From positions 2,426-66,425 of the forward strand of contig JAZTWA010000020.1 of NCBI GenBank assembly GCA_045635585.1: DNA of 64,000 nt, in the 5' to 3' direction. Every line of letters begins with the position of its first letter. Position 1 is the first letter of the stretch. Under the pieces are notes generated by a model, which saw nothing but the letters and a program-made list of their open reading frames with translations, was not told the origin of the DNA and did not search any database. Shown here piece by piece: positions 2,821 through 46,960 of the stretch. The stretch comes from Candidatus Enterousia sp. (GTDB taxonomy: Bacteria; Pseudomonadota; Alphaproteobacteria; Rs-D84). The position numbers were made by a program, and so were the translations under genes.

Positions 2821-3538
2821 ACACCGCAGATACAGTTACCGTTACATCGGTGTCTTTGGCAACAAGACCAGCAACAGCCCCATCGGCCATCGTCGATGCC
2901 GTAACCATTTTTGTGCGTAACAAATTTTGTGGTGGCATGGAATCGTTTACATCGGTGCCGTATGAAATACTTAATATCCGCCCCGCATGTTTGTTGTCGC
3001 CCGATGCCAATGCATCTGCGCGTGTGCGTGCGTTTTCAACCGCAACAGATAAACAGCCTTCGATTGCCGGTGCCAATGTTTCAGGACCAGTGTACATGCG
3101 TAAATTTTCCGTAAAAACATTTGGACGTGATGCAAAACGTGTTAAAACTTCTTCAATTGTTGCCATTTCATTCGCAGATACTTCGACCGCAATCGTCGTT
3201 TCATAGCCCAATGTTTCGGATTTTTGAAGTTCGCGATTCCATTCGCTTTTTTCATATGAATTAAACTGGGTCGTTTGAATCTGGACCGGCATGGTTTTTA
3301 ATACGTCGGTTATTCTGTTTATTTGGGTCGTTGCAGATTGCATCGATTCCAATGTCGTTGGTGCCAAAACCGTTACACGTAATGTGATTGCAATTTTGTC
3401 TTTTTTAACACTGGTCAAACATTCGCCATTTACCGCAATTGTGCGTAATGTATCTGTTTTTCGAAGCGCATCAATCCCCAATGCCAAAATTGCACCAAAG
3501 GCAACAACGCCCATGCACCATGTTAATGTTTTCTTCAT
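2807..3538 (-). CDS. SIMPL-domain (DUF541 / BP26-like) periplasmic protein
   Basis: 243 aa with an N-terminal signal/TM segment. The overall pattern (IAVNGE...TQFNSYEKSEW...GYETTIAVEV...AVENARTRADALA...VTVTVSAVFEI) matches SIMPL family architecture as I recall it. Confidence 0.65.
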   Translation of the reverse strand: MKKTLTWCMGVVAFGAILALGIDALRKTDTLRTIAVNGECLTSVKKDKIAITLRVTVLAPTTLESMQSATTQINRITDVLKTMPVQIQTTQFNSYEKSEWNRELQKSETLGYETTIAVEVSANEMATIEEVLTRFASRPNVFTENLRMYTGPETLAPAIEGCLSVAVENARTRADALASGDNKHAGRILSISYGTDVNDSMPPQNLLRTKMVTASTMADGAVAGLVAKDTDVTVTVSAVFEIK

Positions 3539-6649: not shown

Positions 6650-6656
6650 CATGTAT

Positions 6657-6688
6657 GAAAAAAACACCCCGATGCGGGGTGTTTTTTT
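6657..6688. terminator. Bidirectional intrinsic terminator between the convergent helicase and giant gene
   Basis: aaaaaaACACCCCGatgCGGGGTGTtttttttt: a perfect 9-bp stem flanked by an A-run and a T-run. Confidence 0.8.
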
Positions 6689-30388: not shown

Positions 30389-30500
30389 TCTTTCCCACTT
30401 TCGTTGTATATATACAGTTGTAGTGTAGAAAACTTTCCGTATATCGCGCAAGCAAAAAGATGTATATACAAGGCACTTTTTTTATTTGACAGGTTTTGGC
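30389..30500 (-). promoter_or_regulatory. Conserved promoter/5'UTR block of the giant-protein family (copy 3, more diverged)
   Basis: Plus-strand tatata at 30463-30468 and tttgac at 30485-30490 (16-nt spacing). It shares gtgtagaaaa and tgtatatacaa.gca.ttttttatttgac.ggtttt with copies 1 and 2. Confidence 0.45.
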
Positions 30501-30524
30501 GCAGAATTGTGGGATTTTTTTCTT

Positions 30525-30763
30525 TTGTCATTGCGATGGGAGTTTTAACGACCGACGCAATCCAGATAGTGTGTATGCTGATTACTGGATTGCCACGCTT
30601 CGCTCGCAATGACAAAGGTGTTACTGGATTGCTTCGCTGCGCTCGCAATGACAAGGAGTGTAAAGTGTTTTTCCTTTGTCATTGCGATGGGAGTGTAACG
30701 ACCGACGCAATCCAGATGGTGTGGATGATTACTGGATTGCTTCGCTGCGCTCGCAATGACAAG
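30525..30763. repeat. Cluster of palindromic intergenic repeat units (same family as 1712-1874)
   Basis: Two copies of ttgtcattgcgatgggag.gtaacgaccgacgcaatccagat, each followed by ~20 nt and then one or two inverse units actggattgc..cgct.cgctcgcaatgacaa. Confidence 0.85.
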
Positions 30764-30821
30764 GGGAGATAATTTTTATTATGGATTTATTTGTGTCGCA
30801 TATGGTATGCTGGGGCTTGAT

Positions 30822-33688: not shown

Positions 33689-33773
33689 GAAAAAGTGGCG
33701 GAAGTCCGCCTAAAAAAACAAAGCCCCGACAGATATTGTCGGGGTTTTGATTATTCCTGGCTGAGTAGAATTC
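33689..33773. repeat. Direct repeat, distal copy (terminator-like hairpin plus decayed tRNA-Ser 3'-end-like segment)
   Basis: gaaaaagtggcggaagtccgcctaaaaaaacaaagccccgacagatattgtcggggttttgattattcctggctgagtagaattc aligns with 41823-41909 at ~80% identity, with a 26-nt identical core caaagccccgacagatattgtcgggg. tggctgagtagaa resembles the tRNA 3' end tggcggagtcgaa. Confidence 0.75.
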
Positions 33774-33829
33774 TGTTGCACAATTTCCCATACCCAAATG
33801 CGTAAACACAGGGTATTTACAGGGAATTT

Positions 33830-35113
33830 TTATTTCGTATGTTGTGGTTCGGCAAATCGACGCATTGCATCGTATGCCAAGCCAAGGCCCACACTGGCCA
33901 TTTTGTTTGCTGATGATAATTCTGCATTTGGGAAATATGACTGCATAACACGACTAACATATGGAATTTCGGTCGAACCACCCGTTAAAATGACTAATTC
34001 TATATCTGTGTTTTTTATACCTGCCTGGGCAATGCACTCTTGAACAGATTTTTCAATTTTGGCCATATCGGACTTGATAGAATCTTCAAAAACGGAACGA
34101 TTAGTTTTGACCATCGGAGCATCTGCTAAAAAGTCTAAAACTATTTCATAGTCCTGCTGTGAAGATAGTGCCATTTTAGCATTTTCAACATAATCTAAGT
34201 TTTTATGCCCCAGACGATTTTCTATTATTTCATATAGACGTTTTGTTTTTTCTGGTTCCAGCCCCCAAACAGTATAACCACGCACCCTATTCAGTGTTTT
34301 ATAGTTATACACTTCGTTCACAGATGACCATGTGGAAAGACTGATATACGGACTGGTTGGGATTGTGATGTTTTTATCATATGATTTATATTCTGTCCCC
34401 AATCCAAAACATGGCATAAATGATTTCATTGATAGCGCCTTGTCAAAATCATTCCCACCAATACGAACACCTGTATTAGCCAATACATCTTCGGTTCTAT
34501 CCAACTTGAACTTGCGTTCTGGTGATAATCTGATAACGGTAAAGTCAGATGTTCCGCCACCAATATCAACAACAAAAGCAAGCTTTTCCGATGTTAAATT
34601 CTGTTCGTGTGCAAAGGCCGCAGCAATAGGTTCATACTGAAATGCGACATGTTTAAATCCAGCTGCAAGTGCGATTTTTTCCAATTCCGCCTGGGCTTGG
34701 GCATCACCAGCAGGATCGTTATCACGAAAATGTACTGGTCGCCCCATAACAACATATTCAACCTTGGTGCCTGCTGCCTTGTCAATTTTCTGTTTCAGGT
34801 GTTTTACAAAATATTCAATAATTGTATCAAAGCGGGTCATTTTTCCATTTATGACCGTCCCGCCACGCATTGTTTGTGACCCCAAAATACGCTTCATGCT
34901 GCGCATAAAACGACCAGAACCATCGCCATTTGTATATTTATCCTGTGCGTCACGACCATAATGCACACGATTGGTTTTATCTGCAAAAAATAATGCGGTT
35001 GGAATTGTGTCTTTGCCGCCTTCTACATCCACCATACGTGGTGCATTGCCATCAGAGATGGCAGCGGCAGAATTTGTAGTTCCAAAATCAATCCCTGCAA
35101 CATATTTAGCCAT
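33830..35113 (-). CDS. Hsp70-family ATPase, YegD-like (no substrate-binding lid)
   Basis: 427 aa. GIDFGTTNSAAA phosphate-1 motif, DIGGGTSDFTVI phosphate-2 motif, LTGGSTEIP adenosine motif. The length and layout are those of the short YegD-type Hsp70 homologues. Confidence 0.85.
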   Translation of the reverse strand: MAKYVAGIDFGTTNSAAAISDGNAPRMVDVEGGKDTIPTALFFADKTNRVHYGRDAQDKYTNGDGSGRFMRSMKRILGSQTMRGGTVINGKMTRFDTIIEYFVKHLKQKIDKAAGTKVEYVVMGRPVHFRDNDPAGDAQAQAELEKIALAAGFKHVAFQYEPIAAAFAHEQNLTSEKLAFVVDIGGGTSDFTVIRLSPERKFKLDRTEDVLANTGVRIGGNDFDKALSMKSFMPCFGLGTEYKSYDKNITIPTSPYISLSTWSSVNEVYNYKTLNRVRGYTVWGLEPEKTKRLYEIIENRLGHKNLDYVENAKMALSSQQDYEIVLDFLADAPMVKTNRSVFEDSIKSDMAKIEKSVQECIAQAGIKNTDIELVILTGGSTEIPYVSRVMQSYFPNAELSSANKMASVGLGLAYDAMRRFAEPQHTK

Positions 35114-35180
35114 AAAAGCACCTCTTTTTACTTGAAAAGTTTATAACAAACTGCTTAAATGTCAAGCATAAGGTTATACT

Positions 35181-35792
35181 ATGTTTATTGTAATCGAGGG
35201 TGGTGATGCCGCTGGCAAAACCACATTGATAAACGGACTCAAACAAACAATCCAACAAAATGGACTGGGGAGTTTGTCGCCACAAAACACCCATTTTCTC
35301 AAATCACCAACCGCCCCATTTGCCCCCGTATGGAAGGATTTAATCAAAACATCCAGCCCACTAACTCGATTTTATTTATTCCGTTCTATTGCACAAAATG
35401 ATGTTGATGTTGCAAAAAAACTTTTAGAAAACGGACAGCACGTTATTCTTGAACGGTATTTTTTATCCAGCGAAGCGTTTAATTGGGCATTAGATGAGAA
35501 AAACAATGTTACAGATCCAAATATACGTTCCGAAAACCACGTTAATTATTCTGGATTGCTAAAGCCCGACTTAGGCTTCTTTTTGTATACATCTGACAAA
35601 AACCGCGAACAAAGATTACAACAAAAAGAAAAACGATCAGATTGGGAAAATCGCGATTTTCAGACCATATTCAACCAAAAGCTTAGAGAACTGGCCCAGC
35701 GCGATAATTGGATTTTTATAGATACAGATAAAAAGAATATCACAGAGGTATTACAATTTGTATCAGCCAGGATTATACAATATCAACGCTGA
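35181..35792 (+). CDS. Divergent thymidylate-kinase-like (d)NMP kinase
   Basis: P-loop FIVIEGGDAAGKTT; ERYFLSSEAF at the position of the Tmk DR(Y/H) motif; KPDLGFFLYTSDKNREQRL at the lid region. The usual TREPGGT nucleotide-binding stretch is replaced by LKSPTAPF. Confidence 0.65.
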   Translation: MFIVIEGGDAAGKTTLINGLKQTIQQNGLGSLSPQNTHFLKSPTAPFAPVWKDLIKTSSPLTRFYLFRSIAQNDVDVAKKLLENGQHVILERYFLSSEAFNWALDEKNNVTDPNIRSENHVNYSGLLKPDLGFFLYTSDKNREQRLQQKEKRSDWENRDFQTIFNQKLRELAQRDNWIFIDTDKKNITEVLQFVSARIIQYQR

Positions 35793-36739
35793 CGCCAATT
35801 ATTGAAAAACAATGGATCATCACGATTAATTGTATATTCAACCCCGCATTTTTTTAATACATCTAATCTATTACTATCAATACGTTTGACGGGCGTTAAC
35901 AGCACATTCGATTCAGGGCATAGATCAAACCTGGTATGCCCCGAAAATAGTTTTAATATCTTTTGCCTTGTGTCATTTGCCCATAAATATGTTCCATGAC
36001 AAATATTATCCAGTTGCAATTTTGATAAATTAACAAAATATTCGTCATAAAGTTCGTCTTGCGTAGTTCCTGTAATTATTTCACCCGCATGCAATCCGAC
36101 ACTTGCTTTTAATCCACTGGTCTTACTTGCTTCTATTATTTCAGATAAAACACACAAATTAGATTCTAGTATGTTTTTATCAGGGTATTCATATCCAGAA
36201 ATATCAAAACCAACGCAACGCGATTTAAACGGCTCTTGTTGCAATAATTTGCAAATATCAGACAACAATTTATACGAATAATTTTTTAATTCTCCAGATT
36301 GCGTACGAATAAAGGTTATACAAATTTTACCTTTTGCGGCTTTATGTAACTTTTCGACATCTTCAAAGCCTTGAATCATACCTATATAGCGCTTATATGT
36401 ATTGTCTATGGTTATGTCAGGACCTGCAATAATTGTGTATTCTGATATTCCAAAGCGCGCCAAATTAAGAGCTAACTCACGTGTTGCCAGACGGTATGTT
36501 TGATATATTTCATTTGTATTTTTTGGTTTTGTAACAGATTGCACCAGTGAATACATTTCGTTAAACTTTTGTTGATTTAATTTATAATCGTTGCCAAACA
36601 TACTAACAAAAGTATCAGACAAACCATCAGGCGACAGAATAGAATACTTATCTAAAAACGCCTGATGTGACTCTTGTAATTTTCTGTACACGTATGTAGG
36701 CGATAAAGAACCTGTAAAATGTAAATGTTTGTCTATCAT
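35783..36739 (-). CDS. Adenosine/AMP-deaminase-fold metallo-hydrolase (short, 318 aa)
   Basis: All ADA-family signatures occur in order: DKHLHFTGSL (HxH), VGFDISGYE, GLHAGE, ICHGTYL, DLCPESNV, TINRDDPLFF. Its start overlaps the upstream gene's stop by 4 nt. Confidence 0.75.
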   Translation of the reverse strand: MIDKHLHFTGSLSPTYVYRKLQESHQAFLDKYSILSPDGLSDTFVSMFGNDYKLNQQKFNEMYSLVQSVTKPKNTNEIYQTYRLATRELALNLARFGISEYTIIAGPDITIDNTYKRYIGMIQGFEDVEKLHKAAKGKICITFIRTQSGELKNYSYKLLSDICKLLQQEPFKSRCVGFDISGYEYPDKNILESNLCVLSEIIEASKTSGLKASVGLHAGEIITGTTQDELYDEYFVNLSKLQLDNICHGTYLWANDTRQKILKLFSGHTRFDLCPESNVLLTPVKRIDSNRLDVLKKCGVEYTINRDDPLFFNNWRQR

Positions 36740-37926
36740 TTAACTTTACCAATCCAAGTACACAGATAGTCCATATGAACCAACCTTTGTGTGCTTACCA
36801 TATTTTGTTCTTGCGGGAATTCATGCTGATAGTCCTTGGGACAATATGGATCCTTGCACAAAAATGACTTATTACCTGTTTGTACCGCATTAAACAGATA
36901 AGATCTAGCCGCACATCCACCACCACACACATCTACTTTTTCACACCCCGCGCATCCACGTAACATTTCTGGATTTGCATTTCGTTGCCTAAACACCTTA
37001 AATTCATCTGATTTTATAATGTCTGATAATTCATGTGTTAACAGGTCTTGTGAAGATTTGTAATCATGCATATAAACACACGGCGAAACAAAAATTTTTC
37101 CATCTGGCGTAATAGAGTGAATCCTGAAACTAGATATTCCACATGGACAACGTTTTGAATTTTTTTGTCCTGTCACTGTTCTCAACACACTTTCACCATT
37201 TTCTACATTATCACAGTGTTGCATCAAATACTGAAACCCATAATAAAACTGTTTAATAGACATAACGTATTTCATTTGTACTGAACTTAAGGGTTTCATT
37301 GTATTAATACGAACAAAAGCATCGTATTTCTTGCATAATTCTATTAGTGCTGACAAGTGTCTTTCTGTAAAATTCCAATTCATGCCAGCCATAATGACAC
37401 TGTGCGGTTTTCCAGTTTGCTTGCAAATATCTAAACATTGAATGGCATCATCATATAAGTTATCGCCACGATTGGCATTATGTTCTTCCTTGAACGGCGA
37501 ATCCAAACTTATATCAAAATCATTTATTTTTTCATAAATATCAGGGCGATATTTATACAAATATAATAATGTATCCCCACTAGTGGTAATTCCCGCCGAT
37601 AACCCATACGAATCCAAACGTTCTATTATATACGGCAACAGAGAATCTTTAACATTTGGACCATTTGTAAAAATTGGCTCGTTACCGCCAAGATTTATCG
37701 TTTCAACATTGTTCTTGGCCAATTGTTCTACTATTCTATCTACAATTTCAGGCGTCATATTAGCACCAAGACGGCGGGCAGACATAGAATAACAATGCTT
37801 GCACTTATGCGGACAATAATTTCCCAGTGTCCAACCAACATTTTTTATTACCGATGGGGTCTCTGGGGCGTTGCCAAATTCGGTAACAGGACCACGTAGT
37901 TTGTAATGTTCAGTTGAGTTATACAT
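36736..37926 (-). CDS. Radical SAM enzyme with a SPASM-type C-terminal auxiliary-cluster domain
   Basis: CPHKCKHC (CX3CX2C) near the N-terminus; GGNEP; C-terminal Cys-rich CPCG...C...CAGCEKVDVCGGGCAARS, typical of SPASM/twitch domains. Confidence 0.85.
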   Translation of the reverse strand: MYNSTEHYKLRGPVTEFGNAPETPSVIKNVGWTLGNYCPHKCKHCYSMSARRLGANMTPEIVDRIVEQLAKNNVETINLGGNEPIFTNGPNVKDSLLPYIIERLDSYGLSAGITTSGDTLLYLYKYRPDIYEKINDFDISLDSPFKEEHNANRGDNLYDDAIQCLDICKQTGKPHSVIMAGMNWNFTERHLSALIELCKKYDAFVRINTMKPLSSVQMKYVMSIKQFYYGFQYLMQHCDNVENGESVLRTVTGQKNSKRCPCGISSFRIHSITPDGKIFVSPCVYMHDYKSSQDLLTHELSDIIKSDEFKVFRQRNANPEMLRGCAGCEKVDVCGGGCAARSYLFNAVQTGNKSFLCKDPYCPKDYQHEFPQEQNMVSTQRLVHMDYLCTWIGKVK

Positions 37927-37927
37927 A

Positions 37928-39511
37928 TCATTTCACCTTTATAAATGGGTTTACTGCCGCCCTGTATTGTAAGCGCGCTTTGCGATATAATTCGTCTGTT
38001 TTTGACTCTTGCTTATAAAAGAATCCTCTGTTGTTTTCTATTGATTTTTCTACAAAACTTGCAACCGTTGTGGCACTTGCATTACTGTCAACCAAATCTA
38101 ATATTTTGCACATAATATCTAAATCCAGTTGTCGTATTTTTAAGTATTCAGCATAAAAATCTGCCATTTCTGATTTTGTAAGTGCCTTTGGCGATGTAAG
38201 CGGGTCTATTGCCTTGTCATAAAAAGCCATATGCACTGTGTGCCAACGCTTCAAGGCATCATACGCTATTTTGGCCCTATCGTCTAATATTCTATAATTG
38301 TAATTCCCCAACACTGGATTTTCACTGGTCACAATATTATTTCTGGAAACTTTCTGTTGAAACGCCGTACCAGTCGCTGCAAACATTTCTGTAAAAATAC
38401 CCTTGCTTATAATCCAATCATATTTCCGCATATATTCATAGTTCTCTTGCAACTCAACCAATGTGGTATAAGGATCAAATAATATCTGGCCAGCTTGAAC
38501 ATAAAAGTCATGTTTCTTAAACAAATCTAACGCCATGCAATTTTGTTTAACCGATGCGCCCTTGGCCATTCGCTTCAACGCAGTTGTAGAAAAATTTTCT
38601 ATTCCGCATGAGAATGAGAAAAAACCAGCACGTTTTAATTCTGCAAGCACTTCATCTGTTACCCTGTCGGCACGTATTGAGCCACGTAAATCAAAGGCGA
38701 GACCATATTCTTGCATTTTGGTTGCAAAATCGCGACACCATTGCGCATCCCTGTCGCCGTCAACAAAGGAATCGTCAATAACTTTGATATGTTGCACACC
38801 TAAACTTTTCAAATACCGCATTTCAGATATAATATTATCTATGCTACGCCCACGCCATTTTGGAGACTTTGAGAGTCTAAAAAAAGAATTTATACTACAA
38901 AAAGAGCAATAACCCGTACAACCACGTGCCGTCAACAGGTGTATGGGCGTACGTTTATCTATTGCGATTTTTACCGTATCACGAACTGGGATTGGCAGGT
39001 CGTCCAGCGGGCTTAATAACTTTACAATTGGATTATGCGTATTTTTGCTATTTTCTTTATAACTTAGATTCTTAATACCTGAAACAGGGGTTTTATCTTG
39101 TAACGCTTGTGCTAAATCACAAATCGCCTGCTCGCCCTCGCCACGAATTACGAAATCAAATCCGCTGTCTAAAAATAAGTCTGGACTAAAAGTGGGGCCA
39201 AAACCACCTGCAGCAAAGGTAATGTTTTTTTGTTGCTTTACAGCATCCAATGTCTTTAACGCCTGATCTATATTGGATTGATACGCAGAAACACCAATGA
39301 ACAACGGTTCTTTGTCTTGTAAAATCTTATTTGCCAATTCGTCTGGCGTCCAGCCATTTAGCCAAGCATCTAAAATTTTTACCTCAAATCCATTTTTTTG
39401 TAAAACTGCAGACAAATACCCCAGCCCCAGATTTTCTTCTGCAGTTCTATGACTGATGGGTGCTGGGGTCGCTAGGATAATAAAATTATTTTTGTTCTGC
39501 GTACTTTGCAA
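37928..39511 (-). CDS. B12-binding-domain radical SAM enzyme (class B-like)
   Basis: N-terminal Rossmann-like cobalamin-binding-type domain (IILATPAP...LGLGYLSAVLQKNGFEVKILD...FIGVSAY...IRGEGE) followed by ARGCTGYCSFCS (CX3CX2C). Confidence 0.85.
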   Translation of the reverse strand: MQSTQNKNNFIILATPAPISHRTAEENLGLGYLSAVLQKNGFEVKILDAWLNGWTPDELANKILQDKEPLFIGVSAYQSNIDQALKTLDAVKQQKNITFAAGGFGPTFSPDLFLDSGFDFVIRGEGEQAICDLAQALQDKTPVSGIKNLSYKENSKNTHNPIVKLLSPLDDLPIPVRDTVKIAIDKRTPIHLLTARGCTGYCSFCSINSFFRLSKSPKWRGRSIDNIISEMRYLKSLGVQHIKVIDDSFVDGDRDAQWCRDFATKMQEYGLAFDLRGSIRADRVTDEVLAELKRAGFFSFSCGIENFSTTALKRMAKGASVKQNCMALDLFKKHDFYVQAGQILFDPYTTLVELQENYEYMRKYDWIISKGIFTEMFAATGTAFQQKVSRNNIVTSENPVLGNYNYRILDDRAKIAYDALKRWHTVHMAFYDKAIDPLTSPKALTKSEMADFYAEYLKIRQLDLDIMCKILDLVDSNASATTVASFVEKSIENNRGFFYKQESKTDELYRKARLQYRAAVNPFIKVK

Positions 39512-39893
39512 TTTCAGCCTTTAAACTGGGGTCTGCGGACATATCTGCAAATTCTGCAGGATATATCCATTTATATTCTGTATGCTCACTTGACAGTTTT
39601 ACATCTCCCCCCAGATATTTAGCTAACAAAGTAATACCAACAGTTTGTCTTTCTTTTGCAGGCGTCATAAATGACCACAACGACCATGGTCTGAATTCAA
39701 TTTCTACATCAAGACCGGTTTCTTCAAATACTTCGCGCTTGATACCATCTGTTGTTTTTTCACCATACTCAATTTTCCCGCCTGGGACATCCCATAATTC
39801 GGCATAAACATCTTCTTCGCAACTGCGCTTCAGAACTAAAATCTTATCGTCTTTATGTATAATTGCCTTCAACGCAACCTTAAATTCCGCCAT
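39486..39893 (-). CDS. Nudix hydrolase
   Basis: Canonical Nudix box GGKIEYGEKTTDGIKREVFEETGL (GX5EX7REUXEEXGU). First gene of the four-gene operon; overlaps the next gene by 26 nt. Confidence 0.9.
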   Translation of the reverse strand: MAEFKVALKAIIHKDDKILVLKRSCEEDVYAELWDVPGGKIEYGEKTTDGIKREVFEETGLDVEIEFRPWSLWSFMTPAKERQTVGITLLAKYLGGDVKLSSEHTEYKWIYPAEFADMSADPSLKAEIAKYAEQK

Positions 39894-40248
39894 TTTGCTC
39901 TCCTTGTATGGGTAGTATCTTACTGTATAAATTCACAAAATCAAGTTTTGATTAAATTTTTCTTTTACTCATAACAAAACTATATGGGAAAAATTTAAAA
40001 TTTGTTTTCAAGTAAAATATTTTCAATTTTGGCGATTTAAAAAAAGATCACATTTGAAAAAAATTCCTTTCCCGTTATTAATTAATTATAAGGAGTCCAA
40101 GCCTATCATACCTGCAAAGGCGGGAATTGGTTCGCGTTATGATTGAACGAGCAACTTATTCACAAGAACAACTGATATTCTGTATCAACATCAACGGTTA
40201 TATAATTCATTTTTATCTACATATCATATCAATCACAATAGCCGTCCA

Positions 40249-40596
40249 ATGGAATATACGGTCAACGGTGATAATGTGATGATTGTGCGACCGGTTGTGC
40301 TGCGCCGATATGCCAACACCAGATTTAGCGGTGGACGTAACGGCACGCTGAGCATGACAGAAAACAACCACCTGATATTGAAGGCCTTTGCCACCGCGTG
40401 GAAATATAGAGAATTGTATGAACGGGATGGGGACATACACCGCATATTCCAAGAAGAACACACATCGCCACGTCAGTTTTACCGGCATCTGGATATCGCA
40501 TATATGAATCCGGACAAGGTTAATGAAATCTTGTCCGGTAAAGCACATATCAATGTTAATGATTTGTTCCAGATTGCAAGAGAGAATCAGTTGTAA
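40249..40596 (+). pseudogene. Remnant: C-terminal fragment of a serine recombinase (resolvase/invertase with alphaproteobacterial-type C-terminal extension)
   Basis: HLILKAFATAWKYRELYERDGDIHRIFQEEHTSPRQFYRHLDIAYMNPDKVNEILSGKAHINVNDLF parallels the ...LxKALARAxRWxxxLExG....SYvxRxLRLxxLAPDIVEAILDGxQP..L.L..L tail of such recombinases. No catalytic resolvase domain is present. A 47-codon ORF at 40139 (MIERATYSQEQL...) could be a scrap of the N-terminus. Confidence 0.45.
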
Positions 40597-41661
40597 TTAT
40601 TTTGTAGGATTTCCTGTTTCCATCTCTGCACCGACCATAGGACCATTAAAACTATACCTCTTGTGTTTATTCAAAAATATTTCCCTTAAAACTTTATTTT
40701 CACGACGCAATACATTATCTGAGTCAGTAGAACCTTCTGGGGCCTGTGAAAAATATTCTGATAATATTTGCCATTTTAAATCAGCTTTGGCATTTTCTAT
40801 ATCATCTTTGTTTTCGAAATCAATTTCACGCCCCAGTATAATCGCAACACTTTGTTCATTCATATGTGTGATTAACGCTTCTATTGCTGATATTTTTCGT
40901 TTATCCCCATTAATTTTTTCATATACATTGAAAAGTGCATTAAATATTTTATACAAAACAAACAATGTCCCCACAAACAGTAAGGCGTTTGGAATTTTCA
41001 CAACAACAATCGAAAGCGCCGCATACACCCAATTCCAACCATTTGGTACAAGACTTGCATTGATAAGATTCAGTTGCTCTGAAAAAAGACTTAAAGTTTC
41101 AGAGATATTGCAAAGAGAAAAACTGCCAAGAATTACCGCCAACACAATTATGCCCAACATACTCCACCCATAGAAGCGCATATTTTTAACTGACTCTTCT
41201 TTGAAATCTTTAACACTGTTTATAATTTTTATATTTTTTTCGATTTTCGCCTTGTGTTTTTGGTATTTTTCATCCATTTGCTTCGTTTTGTTAGCTGTTT
41301 CTTCTTCTCGCTTTTGAGCGGTATCTTCCAACTCCACAATTCTATTTTCTAATTGTATCTTCTCATGATTTAAAGACCCAGCAGGATATTCTCCCGTATC
41401 ATCTTGGAGACCTATTTTTGTTTCTAACTGATTATGCTCTGTTTTCAACTGATTAATATCATTAACCAGCGCATCCCCCTCTGATTTATACCTGGTCAAA
41501 TTCTGTGTAGCTACAGAAATATCTGACTGTAAGGAAGCCAATGTATCTTGCGCTTGCGATATTTCATTTTGTAAGTTCTGTTTTTCTGTTCTCAATTGTT
41601 GATTTTCTTCAATAAGTTGCTGCCGATTTAGTGCTAAGGCAGAATTTGTAACGGGAGCCAT
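40597..41661 (-). CDS. Coiled-coil membrane protein, unknown function
   Basis: 354 aa. The N-terminal ~150 aa are heptad-like and Q/E/N/L-rich (QQLRTEKQNLQNEISQAQDTLASLQSD...). Two hydrophobic segments follow (WSMLGIIVLAVILGSFSL; WVYAALSIVVVKIPNALLFVGTLFVLY), then a soluble C-terminal ~100 aa. Confidence 0.6.
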   Translation of the reverse strand: MAPVTNSALALNRQQLIEENQQLRTEKQNLQNEISQAQDTLASLQSDISVATQNLTRYKSEGDALVNDINQLKTEHNQLETKIGLQDDTGEYPAGSLNHEKIQLENRIVELEDTAQKREEETANKTKQMDEKYQKHKAKIEKNIKIINSVKDFKEESVKNMRFYGWSMLGIIVLAVILGSFSLCNISETLSLFSEQLNLINASLVPNGWNWVYAALSIVVVKIPNALLFVGTLFVLYKIFNALFNVYEKINGDKRKISAIEALITHMNEQSVAIILGREIDFENKDDIENAKADLKWQILSEYFSQAPEGSTDSDNVLRRENKVLREIFLNKHKRYSFNGPMVGAEMETGNPTK

Positions 41662-41822
41662 TATTAATCCTTTTATTTTATCGCATTTTATGTAGGATTT
41701 TTTTTACTGTTTTCAAGGGGTAACACATAAAAACTGGCATCGGTGTTTTGGGCAATGTATGTAAGTAGCGGAATTATTCGAACATTTGATAATTTCGTTG
41801 TACATACCGGTAACCTTGTGAT

Positions 41823-41909
41823 GAAAAAGTGGCTGAAATCCGGCTAAAAACAAAGCCCCGACAGATATTGTCGGGGCGTTTGATTTTTGTGGCGGAGTCG
41901 AAGGGATTC
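41823..41909. repeat. Direct repeat, tRNA-proximal copy (overlaps the 3' 20 nt of tRNA-Ser)
   Basis: See 33689-33773. It contains the hairpin CCCCGACAgatatTGTCGGGG, which acts as the terminator of tRNA-Ser on the minus strand. Confidence 0.75.
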
Positions 41910-41980
41910 GAACCCTTGATACCCTTGCGGGTATACCACATTTCCAATGTGGCGCACTAGACCAACTATGCGACGACTCC
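41890..41980 (-). tRNA. tRNA-Ser (GGA)
   Basis: Minus strand GGAGTCGTCGCATAGTTGGTCTAGTGCGCCACATTGGAAATGTGGTATACCCGCAAGGGTATCAAGGGTTCGAATCCCTTCGACTCCGCCA. Anticodon loop TTGGAAA, long variable arm (class II), CCA encoded. Confidence 0.9.
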
Positions 41981-41993
41981 TGAATAAAAATGA

Positions 41994-42365
41994 TTATTCT
42001 TCGTCCAAAGCGTCAACATCAGAAGATTCTTCAACAACTTCTTCGTCTGATGACAAAACAGAATCCAATTCCGCATCAATTTCACGCAACAACGGATCAG
42101 ACGCAGCAATTTCCAATGATTCTTCACCAGGTTCTGAAACAGGCGCTTCTTTGTAAGATTGGACAAATTCATGACGGACCGCAGATACATCCAATTTACC
42201 ACTGGCGATTTCGCGCAGCGCAACAACAGTCAATTTATCATCTTTGGTATCAACCACAGGTTCTGCCCCACCGTTCAAATCACGAACACGCTGAGATGCC
42301 AACATCCCCAGTTCATAACGACTTTCTACGTATGGTAAAGTATCAGAATTTGTTGTACGTGCCAT
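41994..42365 (-). CDS. rpoZ: DNA-directed RNA polymerase subunit omega
   Basis: MARTTNSDTLPYVESRYELGMLASQRVRDLNGGAEP is the conserved RpoZ core, followed by an acidic tail. Start moved to ATG 42365, because the upstream part of the listed ORF is low-complexity. Confidence 0.85.
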   Translation of the reverse strand: MARTTNSDTLPYVESRYELGMLASQRVRDLNGGAEPVVDTKDDKLTVVALREIASGKLDVSAVRHEFVQSYKEAPVSEPGEESLEIAASDPLLREIDAELDSVLSSDEEVVEESSDVDALDEE

Positions 42366-42415
42366 TTTAATTCCTTTGTTGAAATCTTTTTTAACCAGGT
42401 TATAATGAACCATGG

Positions 42416-43672
42416 ATGGCAAAAATGCAAGAAGAAAATAATAAAAATAATATAAAAACACTATCTTTTGGTTGTCGATTAAATGCGTTGGAATCGGAAA
42501 AGATTCAGAAAATGCTGGCCCCACATATCAAAACCGCAATTGTCGTTAATACGTGCGCCGTAACAGCAGAAGCAGAAAGACAATCAGGTCAGGCATTACG
42601 ACGTATTGCACGCGAAAACCCAAACAGCCCTATTTTTGTAACAGGATGCGCTGCAACACGAAATCCAGAATTGTTTACACATATTCCAAACACTGCCGTT
42701 ATTGCCAATCGCGAAAAATTAAATCTGGAATCATATGTCGCCGCAATCCAATCAGGAAAATGTGACATTATCAATCCGACAATTGAAAAATTTAGTCAGG
42801 TTGACACAAAGCTGTCCAAACAATTCATACAAATACAAAATGGATGCAATCATAATTGTGCGTACTGTATAACACGCGCATTGCGTGGACCCGCAGTATC
42901 TTTTGAATATACAGACATATTGAACGATGTACGAACTGCGGTCCAACATGGCTTTTATGAAATTGTTTTAACTGGTGTCGATATCGCGTCATATGTAAAA
43001 AACGATACAGATGGCGTATGCACATTATCAAAACTGTGTAAAAAACTGTTAAACGATGTGCCAGAAATTCAAAGGCTACGTTTATCTTCGGTAGACCCGG
43101 CCGTACCAGACGTTCACAACATCATAGATTTAATACACAATAATCCTAGAATGATGCCGCACATGCATTTTTCAATGCAATCATGTTCTGATACGATATT
43201 AAAAAGCATGGGACGCAGACATAATGCACAAATGGTACGCGACTTGGTTACACACGCAAAAGGAAAAATTACATTCAGCTGGGATATAATTTGTGGATTT
43301 CCAGGTGAAACAAACGAATTATTTGCTGAGACATTAGCAATGATTCATGAAACAAAACCAATTAAGATTCATGCATTTCCTTTTTCACCACGTCCCGACA
43401 CCCCCGCAGCCACTATGCCAATGCAAATAAATCGCACAATTTCCAAAGAACGCGTAAAAATTATAAATACCACAGCAAATCAAAACCGCTTGGATTTTAT
43501 GCAATCCCAGATTGGCAAGACCGTTCAAGTCTTGGTCGAAGAAAATAATATGGCACGTTGCCCACACGATATTGCCGTAAAGATTACCGGACCCAATGTA
43601 CCTGCACGCACAATATGCGACGTTACAATAACTGACGTCGTTGACGACTGTTTCATCGGTTGCATGGCTTGA
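42416..43672 (+). CDS. mtaB: MiaB-family radical SAM methylthiotransferase, MtaB-like
   Basis: N-terminal UPF0004 domain (TLSFGCRLNALESE...VNTCAVT), radical SAM motif NGCNHNCAYC, ~418 aa. Confidence 0.8.
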   Translation: MAKMQEENNKNNIKTLSFGCRLNALESEKIQKMLAPHIKTAIVVNTCAVTAEAERQSGQALRRIARENPNSPIFVTGCAATRNPELFTHIPNTAVIANREKLNLESYVAAIQSGKCDIINPTIEKFSQVDTKLSKQFIQIQNGCNHNCAYCITRALRGPAVSFEYTDILNDVRTAVQHGFYEIVLTGVDIASYVKNDTDGVCTLSKLCKKLLNDVPEIQRLRLSSVDPAVPDVHNIIDLIHNNPRMMPHMHFSMQSCSDTILKSMGRRHNAQMVRDLVTHAKGKITFSWDIICGFPGETNELFAETLAMIHETKPIKIHAFPFSPRPDTPAATMPMQINRTISKERVKIINTTANQNRLDFMQSQIGKTVQVLVEENNMARCPHDIAVKITGPNVPARTICDVTITDVVDDCFIGCMA

Positions 43673-43720
43673 AAAAACACGAAATAAAACTATATAAGAC
43701 TTGAACAACAAGGAACAACT

Positions 43721-44062
43721 ATGAATTTTAATACATTATTATCAGAATGTCATAAGAAAATAGAAAGCGCAAATACATGTGCCGAAAAAACAAAAATCGC
43801 AGAAACTTATTTGCCCAGATTAAACATTCTGATGAAGAACGAAGAAAAAGAACGCGAACGCAGTTTGCTGTTTCATGGGGCACTGGCCATATCGTTTTCT
43901 GTGATCATGCTGACTATATGTATTTTCAACGCACAAAAACAAAAAGATGACGCAAAAAGCGAACAGGCGCGCACAGAACAAATAACGAACAAACCACAAA
44001 CCAAAATTACGTCTGATGCACCGCTATTACAGTTTCGCGTGCAAAATCAAAAACAAAAATAA
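43721..44062 (+). CDS. Small membrane protein, unknown function
   Basis: 113 aa with one hydrophobic helix (LLFHGALAISFSVIMLTICIF), followed by the terminator at 44065. Confidence 0.45.
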   Translation: MNFNTLLSECHKKIESANTCAEKTKIAETYLPRLNILMKNEEKERERSLLFHGALAISFSVIMLTICIFNAQKQKDDAKSEQARTEQITNKPQTKITSDAPLLQFRVQNQKQK

Positions 44063-44064
44063 CC

Positions 44065-44087
44065 ATCCCCGCCAAACGGGGATTTTT
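44065..44087 (+). terminator. Intrinsic terminator
   Basis: ATCCCCG-ccaaa-CGGGGAT followed by TTTTT. Confidence 0.7.
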
Positions 44088-44134
44088 AAATTTTTATATT
44101 GGAAATTGATTTTATTACTGCTAGTATCCATTCT

Positions 44135-45310
44135 ATGAAAAAGAATTTATTCGCGTTATTTTTATCGCTTTTGTGTCTGGGGGCGCGTGCCGCCGACTTT
44201 AAAACCAAGGCAAAATCTGCATTCTTAATCGACTACGATTCTGGCACAGAAATTATTGCAAAAAATGCAGACACATTAATGCCACCATCTTCGATGATTA
44301 AATTAATGACGTTGGCGCTGTTGTTCGACGAAGTTAAGGCAGGCAATCTGACACTGGATTCACGAATTACGGTTGGCCCAAATGCCGATTACAACAGACC
44401 AGAATGGTATCCCGCCAGTAAAATATGTCTGGTCGCCGGTCAGACAATCACTGTGCGCGATTTAATTTTGGGACTGATTGTGTTATCAGGCGGCGATGCA
44501 TCTGTGGTTGTCGCGGAAAAATTGGCAGGAACCGAAGAAGCATTTACACAGATGATGCGCGACAAAGCACGCAGTATTGGAATGAACCAATCAACATTTG
44601 GTAATGCCAGTGGACTGCCCAATCCAAATAATTTGATGACCAGTCGTGAATTAGCAATCTTGGCACAACACCTGATTACAGACTATCCAGATTTATATCC
44701 GATGTTTGCCACAAAACGATTTGAATTTAACGAACATCAAACAAACTGGTGCCGCGAATGGGGACGTACACATACACTGAATTACAACAAATTATTATTC
44801 AATATGCGTGGCGCTGATGGATTAAAAACAGGTCATACAAATGACGGCGGATATGGCATGGTCGCCAGTGCAAAAATCGGCGACAGACGATTAATCGGTA
44901 TATTAAATGGTTTTAACGGCAAAGGACATGATGCATTGGCCAACGAGATGAAAAAACTATTGGAATATGGTTTTAAAAACACTATAACCAAGACTTTTGT
45001 TCGTGCGGGCGATGTTGTTGCAAAAATCCCTGTTTGGTATGGACGTGTACCAACCGTTGATGCAACCGTTTCTGAAACATTTGCAATAACATTACCAACA
45101 GAAAATAGTATGAATGGGGTACGCGTTTTGGCACGATATGACGAACCAATTAATGCACCAATTATGGCCGGCGACGTTATCGGCGAAATAATCGCAGAAC
45201 AAAATGGCACAGTAATAAAACGCGCACCACTGGTTGCCAAAGAACACGTCAGAAAAACACAATTCTTTGGACGCGCGATTAAAAATATTCGCGTAATGTT
45301 GGGGTTGTAA
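44135..45310 (+). CDS. D-alanyl-D-alanine carboxypeptidase (PBP5/6 family)
   Basis: Signal peptide MKKNLFALFLSLLCLGARA; SxxK motif (PPSSMIKLMT); SGGD at the SxN position; KTGHT (KTG). Start moved to ATG 44135. Confidence 0.9.
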   Translation: MKKNLFALFLSLLCLGARAADFKTKAKSAFLIDYDSGTEIIAKNADTLMPPSSMIKLMTLALLFDEVKAGNLTLDSRITVGPNADYNRPEWYPASKICLVAGQTITVRDLILGLIVLSGGDASVVVAEKLAGTEEAFTQMMRDKARSIGMNQSTFGNASGLPNPNNLMTSRELAILAQHLITDYPDLYPMFATKRFEFNEHQTNWCREWGRTHTLNYNKLLFNMRGADGLKTGHTNDGGYGMVASAKIGDRRLIGILNGFNGKGHDALANEMKKLLEYGFKNTITKTFVRAGDVVAKIPVWYGRVPTVDATVSETFAITLPTENSMNGVRVLARYDEPINAPIMAGDVIGEIIAEQNGTVIKRAPLVAKEHVRKTQFFGRAIKNIRVMLGL

Positions 45311-45311
45311 A

Positions 45312-46217
45312 ATGGCACCACGAAAAAAAACATCTTTGGATTACGAATTTCCACATCCAATGGACAACGATTATATGGTTGGACATTCAGAAACACTGCG
45401 CAACTTTGTGAACGCATGGGGAAATCGTGAAACGCATCCAATACACCCTGTTTGGATGTTGACCGGACCAATGGGAATCGGCAAGGCGACACTGGCATAC
45501 AAAATTGCAAAAATGGTATATGGAAATGTTGGCGACTTTTTCATTATTGACCAAGAACGCAATATCGATAAAGACGGAAAAACAAAATCAGACAGCAAGA
45601 CAATTTCTGTGTACACAGTGCGCGCAATGATGAATAAAATGCAACTGTCTTCTATGTCGGGTGATTGGCGCGTAGTTTTAATTGATTCCGTTGATCAATT
45701 AAATACCGCCGCATCAAATGCGATATTAAAACTATTGGAAGAACCACCCGCAAAAACATTATTCCTGTTGGTTGTACACCAATTGGCAAACGTATTACCA
45801 ACCGTTCGTTCGCGTTCACGCGTTGAAAAAATGCGACCGTTGACGATATCACAACTGCGCGAACTGTGTGCCAAATTTATCCCAGAAGAAGACGTCAGCA
45901 CAGAAACACTGAAGTTGGCAAATGGCAGTTTTGGTCGTATTGCAAATCTGAAAAAATCGGGCGGTGATGCGATTTATGCCGAACTGATTGAAATTCTGAA
46001 CAACAAACACGCAACCAGTGCGGACGTTATGGGATTGGCAAAAAAAATTGCACCTGCACCAGAATTGTATGGAATCTTGTTAGACGCAATTGCTTATTTC
46101 GGTTTGGCAGAACTATATCCAGTTGCGACACATTCAATTGCCGATATAAAAAATATATATTTAGAACCAGAAATTGGTATCTTTAAGATAATTATGGAAA
46201 TAAAAAAATGTTTATAG
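45312..46217 (+). CDS. holB: DNA polymerase III subunit delta'
   Basis: GHSETLRNFVNAW...HPVWMLTGPMGIGKATLAYKIA (AAA+ P-loop-like), VVLIDSVDQLN, SRS motif (TVRSRSR). Confidence 0.8.
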   Translation: MAPRKKTSLDYEFPHPMDNDYMVGHSETLRNFVNAWGNRETHPIHPVWMLTGPMGIGKATLAYKIAKMVYGNVGDFFIIDQERNIDKDGKTKSDSKTISVYTVRAMMNKMQLSSMSGDWRVVLIDSVDQLNTAASNAILKLLEEPPAKTLFLLVVHQLANVLPTVRSRSRVEKMRPLTISQLRELCAKFIPEEDVSTETLKLANGSFGRIANLKKSGGDAIYAELIEILNNKHATSADVMGLAKKIAPAPELYGILLDAIAYFGLAELYPVATHSIADIKNIYLEPEIGIFKIIMEIKKCL

Positions 46218-46960
46218 ATACACACTGTCATTTAACAGACGCATATACCGACGGTGCAGACAAAATTATAAAACGCGCAATCGAAGCCAATGTTGGTATT
46301 ATGATTTGCCCAACCGCCAATCCAGAAGATATTGAATCCGCATTAGACATAGCAAATAAATATGACAATATATTTTGCACAATTGGAATTCACCCAGAAT
46401 ACACAAACAGCGACGCAAAACAATATTTAACAGATACTGTATTAAACAACCCACGCGTCGTTGGGGTTGGCGAAATCGGTTTGGATTATCATTATGCGCG
46501 CGAAACACGCGATGCACAAATAAAACTGTTTGAGCAACAATTAGATATAGCAAAAAAATACGCCCTGCCCGTCGCAATTCATACACGCGATGCCGAAGCA
46601 GATACCGCCGCCATCTTAACCGGGGACGTTCTTGGTGTTATGCACTGTTTTACCAGTTCATGGGATTTGGCAAAAAAAATGCTGGATCGCGGATTCTTCT
46701 TTTCCGCCAGCGGTATATTAACATTCAAAAACGCAGACGATATTCGCGAAACATTTGCAAAAATACCAAACGACAGAATTGTAATCGAAACAGATGCACC
46801 ATACTGCGCACCCGTACCATACCGCGGAAAAACATGTGAACCCGCAATGGTAATCGAAACCGCACACGTTTTGGCACAAATTAAAAATTTGCAAATGGAC
46901 GATTTAGAAACTATACTGATGCAAAACGTTAAACAATTATATCCAAAAATAAAATTATAG
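46208..46960 (+). CDS. tatD: TatD-family metal-dependent hydrolase
   Basis: FIDTHCHL start, GEIGLDYHY, IHTRDA, HCF and IETDAPY motifs. Confidence 0.9.
   Translation: MFIDTHCHLTDAYTDGADKIIKRAIEANVGIMICPTANPEDIESALDIANKYDNIFCTIGIHPEYTNSDAKQYLTDTVLNNPRVVGVGEIGLDYHYARETRDAQIKLFEQQLDIAKKYALPVAIHTRDAEADTAAILTGDVLGVMHCFTSSWDLAKKMLDRGFFFSASGILTFKNADDIRETFAKIPNDRIVIETDAPYCAPVPYRGKTCEPAMVIETAHVLAQIKNLQMDDLETILMQNVKQLYPKIKL

Follow-up and report, generated by a model that had tools for sequence, protein, structure and literature searches.

What does a bacterial gene cluster produce when it places two radical S-adenosylmethionine (SAM) enzymes between a Nudix hydrolase and a deaminase, with a nucleotide kinase gene converging on them? 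The question is raised by the region at 33.8-39.9 kb of a 64,000-nucleotide (nt) stretch of Candidatus Enterousia sp. (contig JAZTWA010000020.1); this whole stretch is referred to below as the window. An initial annotation of the sequence had described five of the genes, with reservations, as a nucleotide-modifying cassette that belonged to no described pathway. The region is a single horizontally mobile module of six genes. On balance, the gene content and gene neighborhoods favor a module that converts a common purine nucleotide, probably an adenine nucleotide, to a modified nucleoside or nucleotide by way of two consecutive radical steps. The genes of the module, in order along the window, are as follows.

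33830-35113, minus strand: YegD-type Hsp70/actin-fold ATPase (Hsp70-like), 427 amino acids (aa), divergent from the kinase gene; PF00012 at 105.6 bits
35181-35792, plus strand: Tmk-like kinase, 203 aa, convergent with the operon; PF02223 at 68.6 bits
35783-36739, minus strand: adenosine deaminase (ADA)-like deaminase, 318 aa; PF00962 at 51.3 bits
36736-37926, minus strand: SPASM-type radical SAM enzyme (SPASM-rSAM), 396 aa; PF04055 at 52.4 bits, PF13353, and PF13186 at 24.9 bits
37928-39511, minus strand: cobalamin-binding radical SAM enzyme (B12-rSAM), 527 aa, TTG start; PF02310 at 70.3 bits and PF04055 at 54.1 bits
39486-39893, minus strand: Nudix hydrolase, 135 aa, at the head of the four-gene operon; PF00293 at 59.3 bits

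The gene coordinates and overlaps given in the initial annotation were reproduced exactly in the list of open reading frames (ORFs). The Nudix and B12-rSAM genes overlap by 26 nt, a 1-nt gap at 37927 separates the B12-rSAM and SPASM-rSAM genes, the SPASM-rSAM and ADA-like genes overlap by 4 nt, and the Tmk-like and ADA-like genes overlap tail to tail by 10 nt. An AAGGAG Shine-Dalgarno sequence lies ahead of the ATG of the Nudix gene. The TTG at 39511 is the sole usable start before the conserved N-terminus of B12-rSAM, and the corresponding gene of L002 was called with the same overlap (L-numbers label comparison loci or metagenome-assembled genomes (MAGs) carrying relatives of the module proteins). 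The six domains predicted earlier were borne out by a Pfam profile search, in which all exceeded the gathering scores in the window proteins. None of the five proteins of the originally noted cassette reached an NCBIfam equivalog cutoff.

The five genes of that cassette all belong to the set, but they do not complete it, as the Hsp70-like gene at 33830-35113 is conserved and transferred together with them. The kinase gene, first described as lying beside the operon, is indeed convergent with it; it is more than a neighbor, being a component of the module that appears unlike housekeeping tmk. Relatives down to 46% identity in the ADA-like protein keep the order (Nudix)-B12-rSAM-SPASM-rSAM-ADA-like, followed by the convergent Tmk-like gene and then the YegD-type Hsp70-like gene. 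The six-gene set is present in Enterousia-like gut Alphaproteobacteria and in a MAG labeled Rickettsiales, and it is found reordered in two lineages of the candidate phyla radiation (CPR), Candidatus Daviesbacteria (L008) and Patescibacteria (L129). A Nitrosomonas MAG (L020, 7713-12481) holds a decayed module in which the Tmk-like, SPASM-rSAM, mini-inorganic pyrophosphatase (mini-PPase) and Hsp70-like genes are intact and remnants encode a 146-aa ADA and a 180-aa C-terminal B12-rSAM. The Hsp70-like gene adjoins the cassette in the Enterousia-like loci, in L001 and L015, in both CPR loci, in the Nitrosomonas MAG and in Blastochloris (L017). Because the arrangement is kept in distant relatives and recurs in unrelated phyla, it goes far beyond chance, and the presence of the same set in CPR and Nitrosomonas excludes accidental synteny within one lineage. 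The neighborhood survey that the initial annotation had called for thus found the gene set both in Enterousia-like loci and in unrelated phyla.

Comparison with close relatives established the borders of the region, for which the following features are relevant.

33808-39949, no strand: horizontally common block, 96.1% identical to MAG L009 by blastn
41890-41980, minus strand: tRNA-Ser(GGA), identified by ARAGORN; Rfam 58.4 bits
33714-33770, no strand: 57-nt direct repeat, copy 1, a terminator hairpin with a degenerate tRNA 3' end; possible attachment-site remnant
41846-41902, no strand: 57-nt direct repeat, copy 2, overlapping the tRNA-Ser 3' end; 82% identical to copy 1

All six genes, including those for the kinase and the Hsp70-like protein, lie inside the block of 96% identity, whereas the flank at 41839-46875 (tRNA-Ser, rpoZ, miaB, dacC and holB) is only 71.4-71.5% identical to L009 by blastn. 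The block is 92-94% identical to L010-L012, where the flanks do not align, and its GC content is 0.35-0.38 against about 0.40 around it. A tRNA gene adjoins the Nudix side in five loci: Ser-GGA in the window and L009, Ser-TGA in L010 and L004, and Val-CAC in L001. The sharp drop of identity at the block borders in the L009 comparison and the insertion next to tRNA 3' ends are both marks of a genomic island. The different tRNAs beside the cassette in different genomes, together with the contrast between 96% and 71% identity, identify the block as mobile. Judging by these alignments, it is a recent horizontal transfer, and the tRNA-Ser(GGA) at 41890-41980 is its probable integration target.

The pair of 57-nt repeats brackets 33771-41845. 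The tRNA part of the repeat matches at 11 of 13 positions, and the perfect part is the terminator hairpin. This 21-nt GC-rich hairpin, CCCCGACAGATATTGTCGGGG, is found at 33724-33744 and 41856-41876, exactly two copies in 64 kb where none is expected; both copies score as bidirectional terminators, one at either end of an 8.1-kb segment. No copy of the hairpin was present in 138 comparison loci, and a flanking pair of direct repeats, sought also in L009, L010, L004 and L001, was present in the window alone. In L004 an exact 21-nt copy of the 3' end of tRNA-Ser(TGA) (6465-6489 and 6636-6656) lies 150 nt downstream of the tRNA and just before the cassette, a hint that integration or excision has happened here more than once. 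No integrase or recombinase was found in 33771-41845; for this reason, and because the pair was not reproduced in other loci, the direct-repeat model of the island borders is suggestive only.

L009, although otherwise collinear, has no counterpart of the segment between the cassette and the tRNA, window positions 39950-41838. The segment includes orf115 (40249-40596, plus strand), which gave no Pfam hit and has weak relatives close to the cassette in both L010 and L011. It also includes a gene for a 354-aa protein (40597-41661, minus strand) that begins with a coiled coil and has apparently hydrophobic stretches that may span a membrane. The segment could have arrived by a secondary insertion, or it could be cargo accessory to the module.

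Mobility extends to the wider family of SPASM-rSAM, members of which are carried by conjugative plasmids of Phaeobacter and Enterococcus and by a plasmid of Streptomyces clavuligerus, where they are annotated merely as "radical SAM protein". A genome scan with the SPASM-rSAM alignment found relatives in at least 159 GTDB species, comprising bacteria and one archaeon. A second scan used a Streptomyces homologue and covered the best 80 of 123 loci encoding SPASM-rSAM relatives; it added further CPR lineages and a Gastranaerophilales MAG. The hosts include CPR, DPANN, Melainabacteria, Enterousia, large-genome actinomycetes and Bradyrhizobium. SPASM-rSAM is the conserved core of the module: its alignment does not vary between phyla at more than 120 columns, which hold the CX3CX2C motif and ten other cysteines, among them C260, C262, C283, C325, C328, C334, C338, C362 and C389.

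The partners of this core carry the argument for a nucleotide pathway. Neighboring ORFs were clustered de novo and annotated, and partners were counted by tblastn over 60 distinct SPASM-rSAM loci that are flanked on either side by 5 kb or more. A nucleotide-handling partner was present at 48 of the 60 loci, a pyrophosphatase-type gene at 39, B12-rSAM at 30 and a purine base-processing gene at 25; all partner classes occurred together at 10. Six types of arrangement were distinguished.

Type A/A' (Enterousia-like Alphaproteobacteria, CPR): the six-gene set
Type B (gut Clostridia): His-phosphatase, SPASM-rSAM, B12-rSAM, SAM methyltransferase, unknown protein, Tmk-like kinase, two P-loop kinases, mini-PPase, HelD
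Type C (Thermoactinomycetaceae): Nudix, COG0402 amidohydrolase, Tmk-like kinase, B12-rSAM, SPASM-rSAM
Type D (actinomycetes): B12-rSAM, SPASM-rSAM, mini-PPase, APH-type kinase, PNP/MTAP-like phosphorylase
Type E (Nitrospirota, Acidimicrobiia, Phaeobacter plasmids): SPASM-rSAM, HD/SAMHD1-like protein, PPDK-like and nucleotidyltransferase-like genes
Type F (Clostridium CAG:343 group): SPASM-rSAM, COG0402 amidohydrolase, mini-PPase

Three enzyme types fill the base-processing slot, namely the ADA-like protein, the COG0402 amidohydrolase and the PNP/MTAP-like phosphorylase (PF01048). The pyrophosphatase slot likewise varies among Nudix, mini-PPase and an HD-type hydrolase, and the alternative partner in the last case (F9) resembles SAMHD1-type HD dNTPases. 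That enzymes of both slots are interchangeable points to a pathway handling a phosphorylated purine nucleoside, and this is the strongest argument available. The recurrence of the SPASM-rSAM family beside nucleotide kinases, pyrophosphatases and purine deaminases or phosphorylases in many phyla upholds the earlier, hedged proposal of a nucleotide-modifying cassette. The gene combination also appears to correspond to no described pathway, as had been suspected, since no curated family, defense model or paper was found for it.

The domain identities, the intact catalytic motifs, the occurrence of the gene set in different phyla and its mobility are observations; in the proposed pathway, the class of substrate, the order of steps and the biological role are what we infer from these associations. 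The Tmk-fold kinase would set the phosphorylation state of the substrate or of the finished analogue, taking a nucleoside monophosphate (NMP) to the diphosphate. B12-rSAM would perform a C-methylation or a skeletal rearrangement, and SPASM-rSAM a second radical transformation. The Nudix protein would strip pyrophosphate, a role that a mini-PPase-like or an HD/SAMHD1-like hydrolase would fill in other lineages. The ADA-fold deaminase would convert a 6-amino to a 6-oxo purine, acting on the product, on an intermediate or on the by-product 5'-deoxyadenosine, and the YegD-like ATPase would be an accessory factor. The product could be a secreted or an intracellular antimetabolite, or a defense molecule. 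Genes for MFS or MatE exporters adjoin the module on the Enterococcus and Phaeobacter plasmids, in Daviesbacteria and in L139, and exporters beside several versions favor a secreted antimetabolite. Mobility, toxin-antitoxin and methyltransferase neighbors, and the pairing of a kinase with a radical SAM enzyme keep a viperin-like role in defense in play.

Several observations weigh against a nucleotide-modifying pathway. The functional links among the enzymes are all guilt by association, and no recognized nucleotide partner was found at 11 of the 60 well-flanked loci. SPASM and B12 radical SAM enzymes are mostly peptide maturases or methylases of non-nucleotide substrates, and the closest matches by NCBIfam and by fold (MftC, NirJ, anSME, CteB and PqqE) are enzymes for peptides or cofactors. 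B12-rSAM resembles OxsB weakly, at 63.7 bits, and is without the N-terminal domain of OxsB. All three base-processing types are known routes of 5'-deoxyadenosine disposal and so may not reveal the true substrate. Finally, the Hsp70-like protein has no explained role in the module.

Some versions of the module carry additional genes. In gut Clostridia (L066-L088; for example L071, 9202-19351) it ends beside a gene for HelD (NF041464, 478.9 bits against a cutoff of 419), which is a recycling factor and motor of RNA polymerase. This adjacency may be chance synteny, or HelD may protect the host from a nucleotide analogue that blocks transcription. The Clostridial protein F6 had looked CYTH-like by eye; it was rejected as such, having no Pfam, NCBIfam or PDB match. 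The conjugative plasmid pM190262 of Enterococcus sp. M190262, a human isolate (L140, 7338-14705), carries a compact operon, at 133147-139204, for B12-rSAM, SPASM-rSAM, a 110-aa inorganic diphosphatase, a 961-aa amino-acid-adenylation protein resembling nonribosomal peptide synthetases and an MFS transporter, the product of which may be an aminoacylated, exported nucleoside.

The two radical SAM enzymes were compared with characterized families, and both have orthologues at 44-58% identity in many phyla. In B12-rSAM, which has the CX3CX2C motif, Pfam places PF02310 at residues 26-133 and PF04055 at 194-355. Its orthologues at 44-47% identity adjoin SPASM-rSAM in actinomycetes, Clostridia, Bradyrhizobium and CPR. 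The best NCBIfam model was BchE, at 94 bits against a cutoff of 481, followed by PhpK at 84 and the MCR glutamine methyltransferase at 81 bits. SPASM-rSAM bears the SPASM domain by both PF13186 and TIGR04085 (31.8 bits against a cutoff of 27); its best named NCBIfam maturase was MftC, at 73.4 bits against 265, and every other named maturase scored lower. An AlphaFold2 (AF2) model of SPASM-rSAM, with a predicted local distance difference test (pLDDT) score of 85.5, was nearest to anSME, CteB, PqqE, BlsE, viperin and MoaA, at template modeling (TM) scores of about 0.6. The fold search with this model returned generic superfamily neighbors only and no close structural homologue.

Such matches raise the alternative that the pair matures a ribosomally synthesized, post-translationally modified peptide (RiPP), with the nucleotide genes as unrelated neighbors. 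SPASM and B12-rSAM enzymes are classic RiPP maturases, and the best NCBIfam and fold matches include MftC, CbpB, sactisynthases and PqqE. Every equivalog score is nevertheless far under its cutoff, and the same nucleotide partners recur in unrelated phyla. No conserved small ORF was found upstream, and the overlaps of the operon genes leave no room for a precursor between them. The initial annotation had seen no precursor peptide, and the search near the operon agreed: no conserved precursor ORF was found, and the small upstream ORFs are low-complexity, 24-50 aa long, non-conserved and partly or wholly outside the block common with L009. A RiPP pathway is therefore considered extremely unlikely. 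A permissive Rfam search of 30-46 kb for riboswitches or leaders gave none, the tRNA being the only hit.

The ADA-like protein retains the complete set of zinc ligands and catalytic residues of the ADA TIM barrel. In the family alignment H5, H7, H217, E220 (in the motif H217-A-G-E220), H248 and D307 are invariant, and D308 is replaced by Asn in the Daviesbacteria copy. The PF00962 score exceeds a cutoff of 27 bits, while the score with TIGR01430 is 45.3 bits against 216.55. The protein is rare, with 28 clusters at 90% identity among 5.8 billion proteins, and an exhaustive profile search of 1.84 billion representatives gave a clade of 33 clusters at E<=1e-30; canonical ADAs surfaced only above about E = 1e-10. 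A radical SAM gene adjoins the ADA-like gene in all contexts examined, and the B12/SPASM pair or B12-rSAM was identifiable in each except L143. Two second-tier members that were looked up also lie beside radical SAM genes, with B12-rSAM in L142. ADA folds were the top structural matches of the AF2 model (pLDDT 91.6), again generic superfamily neighbors only; the model lies about as far from ADA1 as from Plasmodium ADA, adenine deaminase, ADAL or Cad1, with 14-19% identity and a TM score near 0.65 to every characterized subfamily. Plasmodium ADAs, which also deaminate 5'-methylthioadenosine (MTA), were the top sequence matches. One motif reads HLHFTGS, with a Thr that is invariant across the clade. 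We take this motif to stand where canonical ADA has an HxHLDG-type motif, and the Thr presumably occupies the position of the Asp that contacts the ribose 5'-OH. The intact catalytic residues, the rarity of the clade, its radical SAM contexts and the invariant Thr together indicate that the protein is probably an active ADA-fold enzyme, dedicated to the module, with an altered ribose pocket. It is like the adenosine deaminase family (ADA1, Plasmodium ADA, ADAL/MAPDA, adenine deaminase and CRISPR Cad1) in its TIM barrel and full residue set, and unlike the characterized enzymes in being confined to the module and far below the TIGR01430 cutoff. In L142 the CPR-type ADA-like gene and B12-rSAM adjoin a gene (2002-3285) for a 427-aa fusion of a HAD-type phosphatase and an NMN-adenylyltransferase-like nucleotidyltransferase, which is another nucleotide-handling accessory of the module.

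An altered ribose pocket fits either a 5'-modified product or 5'-deoxyadenosine, and the latter leads to a second alternative, in which the two radical SAM enzymes have a cofactor, sugar, lipid or other non-nucleotide as their substrate, the ADA-like, COG0402 and PNP-like enzymes serve only to clear 5'-deoxyadenosine, and the kinase and Nudix genes are neighbors from salvage. The initial annotation had raised, as a more mundane possibility, that the deaminase does no more than detoxify 5'-deoxyadenosine, and this may still hold. Such clearance is established for MtaD/DadD-group deaminases and for phosphorylases of the MTAP type. The COG0402 partner scores best with the 5'-deoxyadenosine/MTA deaminase and chlorohydrolase models, many hosts have reduced genomes (CPR, DPANN and Enterousia) and may lack MtnN, and the Thr at the presumed position of the 5'-OH-binding Asp would suit a 5'-deoxy ligand. 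By-product disposal leaves unexplained, however, the consistent presence of kinases, Nudix, mini-PPase and HD hydrolases and the three kinases and phosphatase of the Clostridial version. A generic scavenger would also be expected with many radical SAM enzymes, whereas the ADA-like clade is very rare and found in the module only; to our knowledge, most radical SAM clusters lack a deaminase or phosphorylase gene of this kind. This alternative is accordingly judged improbable.

The kinase was examined with the dTMP kinase model TIGR00041, for which the cutoff is 83.25 bits. The window protein scored 76.7 bits, the cassette kinases of L001, Nitrosomonas and Seinonella 71.5-74.8 bits, and those of other lineages overall 26-75 bits. 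These scores below the cutoff across cassettes, and the position of the gene inside the transferred block, make the protein best read as a putative module-specific NMP kinase. In bacteria tmk often precedes holB; in the window the dacC-like (44099-45310) and holB-like (45312-46217) genes follow each other directly, with no tmk-sized gene between them. Given this gap, one may ask whether the genome has any Tmk-fold kinase besides that of the cassette.

A third alternative would make the module a housekeeping or salvage route to an essential nucleotide in reduced genomes, for example an unusual B12-radical-SAM route to dTMP feeding the adjacent Tmk, or purine salvage. The CPR, DPANN, Melainabacteria and Enterousia hosts, the dacC-holB gap and a kinase just under the dTMP-kinase cutoff all agree with this. 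It sits poorly with a block that was recently transferred and lies at different loci in close relatives, with occurrence in large-genome actinomycetes, Bradyrhizobium and plasmids, and with decay of the module in Nitrosomonas. Moreover, the SPASM enzyme would be superfluous for a mere methylation, and a kinase below the cutoff is found also in Seinonella, the genome of which presumably encodes a canonical tmk too. We regard an essential housekeeping function as very unlikely.

The remaining accessory proteins are as far from named families. The best NCBIfam score of the Nudix protein was 50.9 bits against a cutoff of 245; its gene is absent in L004 and L005, where a mini-PPase gene adjoins instead. 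The Hsp70-like protein scored 260.6 bits with NF008673 against a cutoff of 331, and a literature search on YegD found no established function.

If a nucleotide analogue is formed, it may serve immunity rather than antagonism. In this alternative the chemistry is the same as in the favored pathway and the biological role differs: an intracellular toxic or chain-terminating nucleoside triphosphate (NTP) analogue would act against phages or plasmids, with the kinase feeding or activating it and the Nudix and deaminase proteins limiting self-poisoning. The module is mobile, patchy and tRNA-associated, is found on conjugative plasmids beside toxin-antitoxin, Fic and DNA methyltransferase genes, and lies near a prophage in L001. 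The Tmk-like kinase weakly matches the viperin-associated kinase VakA and PDC-M51B, viperin is among the fold neighbors of SPASM-rSAM, and HelD adjoins the Clostridial version. Prokaryotic viperins (pVips) resemble the module in placing a radical SAM enzyme that acts on an NTP beside an NMP kinase, the logic of CMPK2 and viperin, and in their mobile, patchy distribution; we know of no viperin with SPASM auxiliary clusters or a B12 partner. Against an immune role, no specific PADLOC defense model matched the window or Clostridial proteins, the exporters beside several versions point to a secreted product, and the SPASM-rSAM family had no match in 50,697 phage genomes, so that no signal of counter-selection is visible. 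The single IMG/VR contig among the loci, L139, encodes a transposase, another radical SAM enzyme, a methyltransferase and an MFS exporter, and no viral hallmark was found among the ORFs tested. A viperin-like immune function is thus thought rather unlikely.

Two assignments to known defense families were considered and set aside. Membership in the viperins was rejected at 26.8 bits with NF038283 against a cutoff of 180, and at E=2.3e-10 and 38 bits with the PADLOC pVip model; even the Clostridial proteins gave only about 1e-10 with pVip and about 1e-13 with PDC-M51A. The double match of B12-rSAM and the Tmk-like kinase to PADLOC PDC-M51 reflects family-level similarity only, as the PDC-M51A and PDC-M51B values were E=1.1e-13 and 3.4e-16 for the window proteins and did not strengthen for the Clostridial ones (3.6e-14 and 5e-08). 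The Ophion radical SAM defense system differs in being composed of a radical SAM enzyme, a PHP protein and a PRTase.

Nucleotide-remodeling radical SAM enzymes have yielded antiviral and herbicidal analogues (viperin and ddhCTP, OxsB and oxetanocin, AlsB and albucidin) and a paradigm of innate immunity. The module could represent a third and much more widespread solution, with a conserved SPASM core in at least 159 species and swappable accessories, in a compact block of about 6.1 kb. Its mobility reaches bacteria of the human and animal gut and a conjugative plasmid of Enterococcus. To the initial annotation the analysis adds the recurrence across phyla, accessories for nucleotide processing that can replace one another, and a recent transfer between lineages. 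Study of the module might yield a new nucleoside scaffold, unfamiliar radical chemistry and an account of why a dedicated, very rare ADA-fold clade exists. In a broader and more doubtful extension, which we offer only tentatively, SPASM-rSAM and B12-rSAM would found a new, widespread class of nucleotide-analogue synthases apart from the viperins and OxsB/AlsB, carried by mobile elements in hosts as different as CPR and DPANN symbionts, gut bacteria and actinomycetes. It would make a new modified adenine or hypoxanthine nucleotide for antiviral defense or interbacterial antagonism, with the ADA-like, Nudix and Tmk-like proteins controlling activation and self-protection.

Outside the module, the window holds two giant ORFs on the minus strand, at 6688-18516 (3942 aa) and 20375-30451 (3358 aa). 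The second is extremely rich in Cys, Gly, Thr and Ser, with repeated CxxC...GYY-type modules and a signal-like N-terminus, and probably encodes a huge surface or adhesin-like protein. Between it and the next gene, at 30334-30772, ORFs overlapping on both strands reiterate LRAQRSNPV or LRAKRGNPV and GLLRCARNDK, as is typical of a short palindromic DNA repeat read as protein.

No relevant paper and no description of the module came out of literature searches for this combination of domains; the module apparently is undescribed and close to known nucleoside-analogue radical SAM pathways. The initial annotation had named OxsB/OxsA as the analogue. In the oxetanocin pathway OxsB and the HD hydrolase OxsA act on dATP (PMC13331322; PMC7074753). 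OxsB (5ul2) is indeed the best PDB match of B12-rSAM, at 63.7 bits and E=1.1e-16 over query residues 26-368, but OxsB/OxsA alone is not the best precedent, which is rather AlsB with AlsA acting on 2'-dAMP. OxsB has 744 aa in a four-domain architecture with an extra N-terminal domain, and AlsB is alike (PMC13331322). B12-rSAM shares with this type the cobalamin-binding Rossmann domain followed by the CX3CX2C radical SAM domain. It does not have the four domains, being of 527 aa and aligning from OxsB residue 136 at its own residue 26. Nor is it closer to OxsB than to other class B enzymes, given the 94 bits with BchE, in a comparison that covered OxsB, BchE, PhpK and the MCR glutamine methyltransferase. 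Oxetanocin A biosynthesis, encoded on a Bacillus megaterium plasmid, resembles the module in pairing a radical SAM enzyme with a nucleotide phosphohydrolase on a mobile element, and some SPASM-rSAM relatives are paired with an HD/SAMHD1-like protein comparable to OxsA. It differs in that the hydrolase of the window is Nudix rather than HD, and in that it offers no counterpart to the genes for a second radical SAM enzyme, the kinase, the deaminase or the Hsp70-like protein.

The albucidin pathway of Streptomyces albus subsp. chlorinus shares more of this logic. There AlsB, a B12-rSAM with specificity for 2'-dAMP, acts together with another radical SAM enzyme, AlsA, and genes for a thymidylate kinase and PPDK-like proteins lie in the neighborhood (PMC7074753; PMC13331322). 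The likeness comprises a B12-rSAM beside a second radical SAM enzyme, a Tmk gene nearby, PPDK-like genes as at some SPASM-rSAM loci, no precursor peptide and, if the proposed pathway holds, an adenine nucleotide as substrate. The differences are the four-domain OxsB architecture of AlsB, as against the 527-aa B12-rSAM of the window without the N-terminal domain, the annotation of AlsA as biotin-synthase-like rather than SPASM, and an operon for which no ADA-like, Nudix or Hsp70-like gene is reported. Of the best 80 of the 123 loci in the scan with the Streptomyces homologue, none came from S. albus subsp. chlorinus. As AlsA and AlsB were compared by description only, the module is not filed as a member of these pathways; by analogy it would work as they do, with AlsB and AlsA as the closest functional precedent for its enzyme logic.

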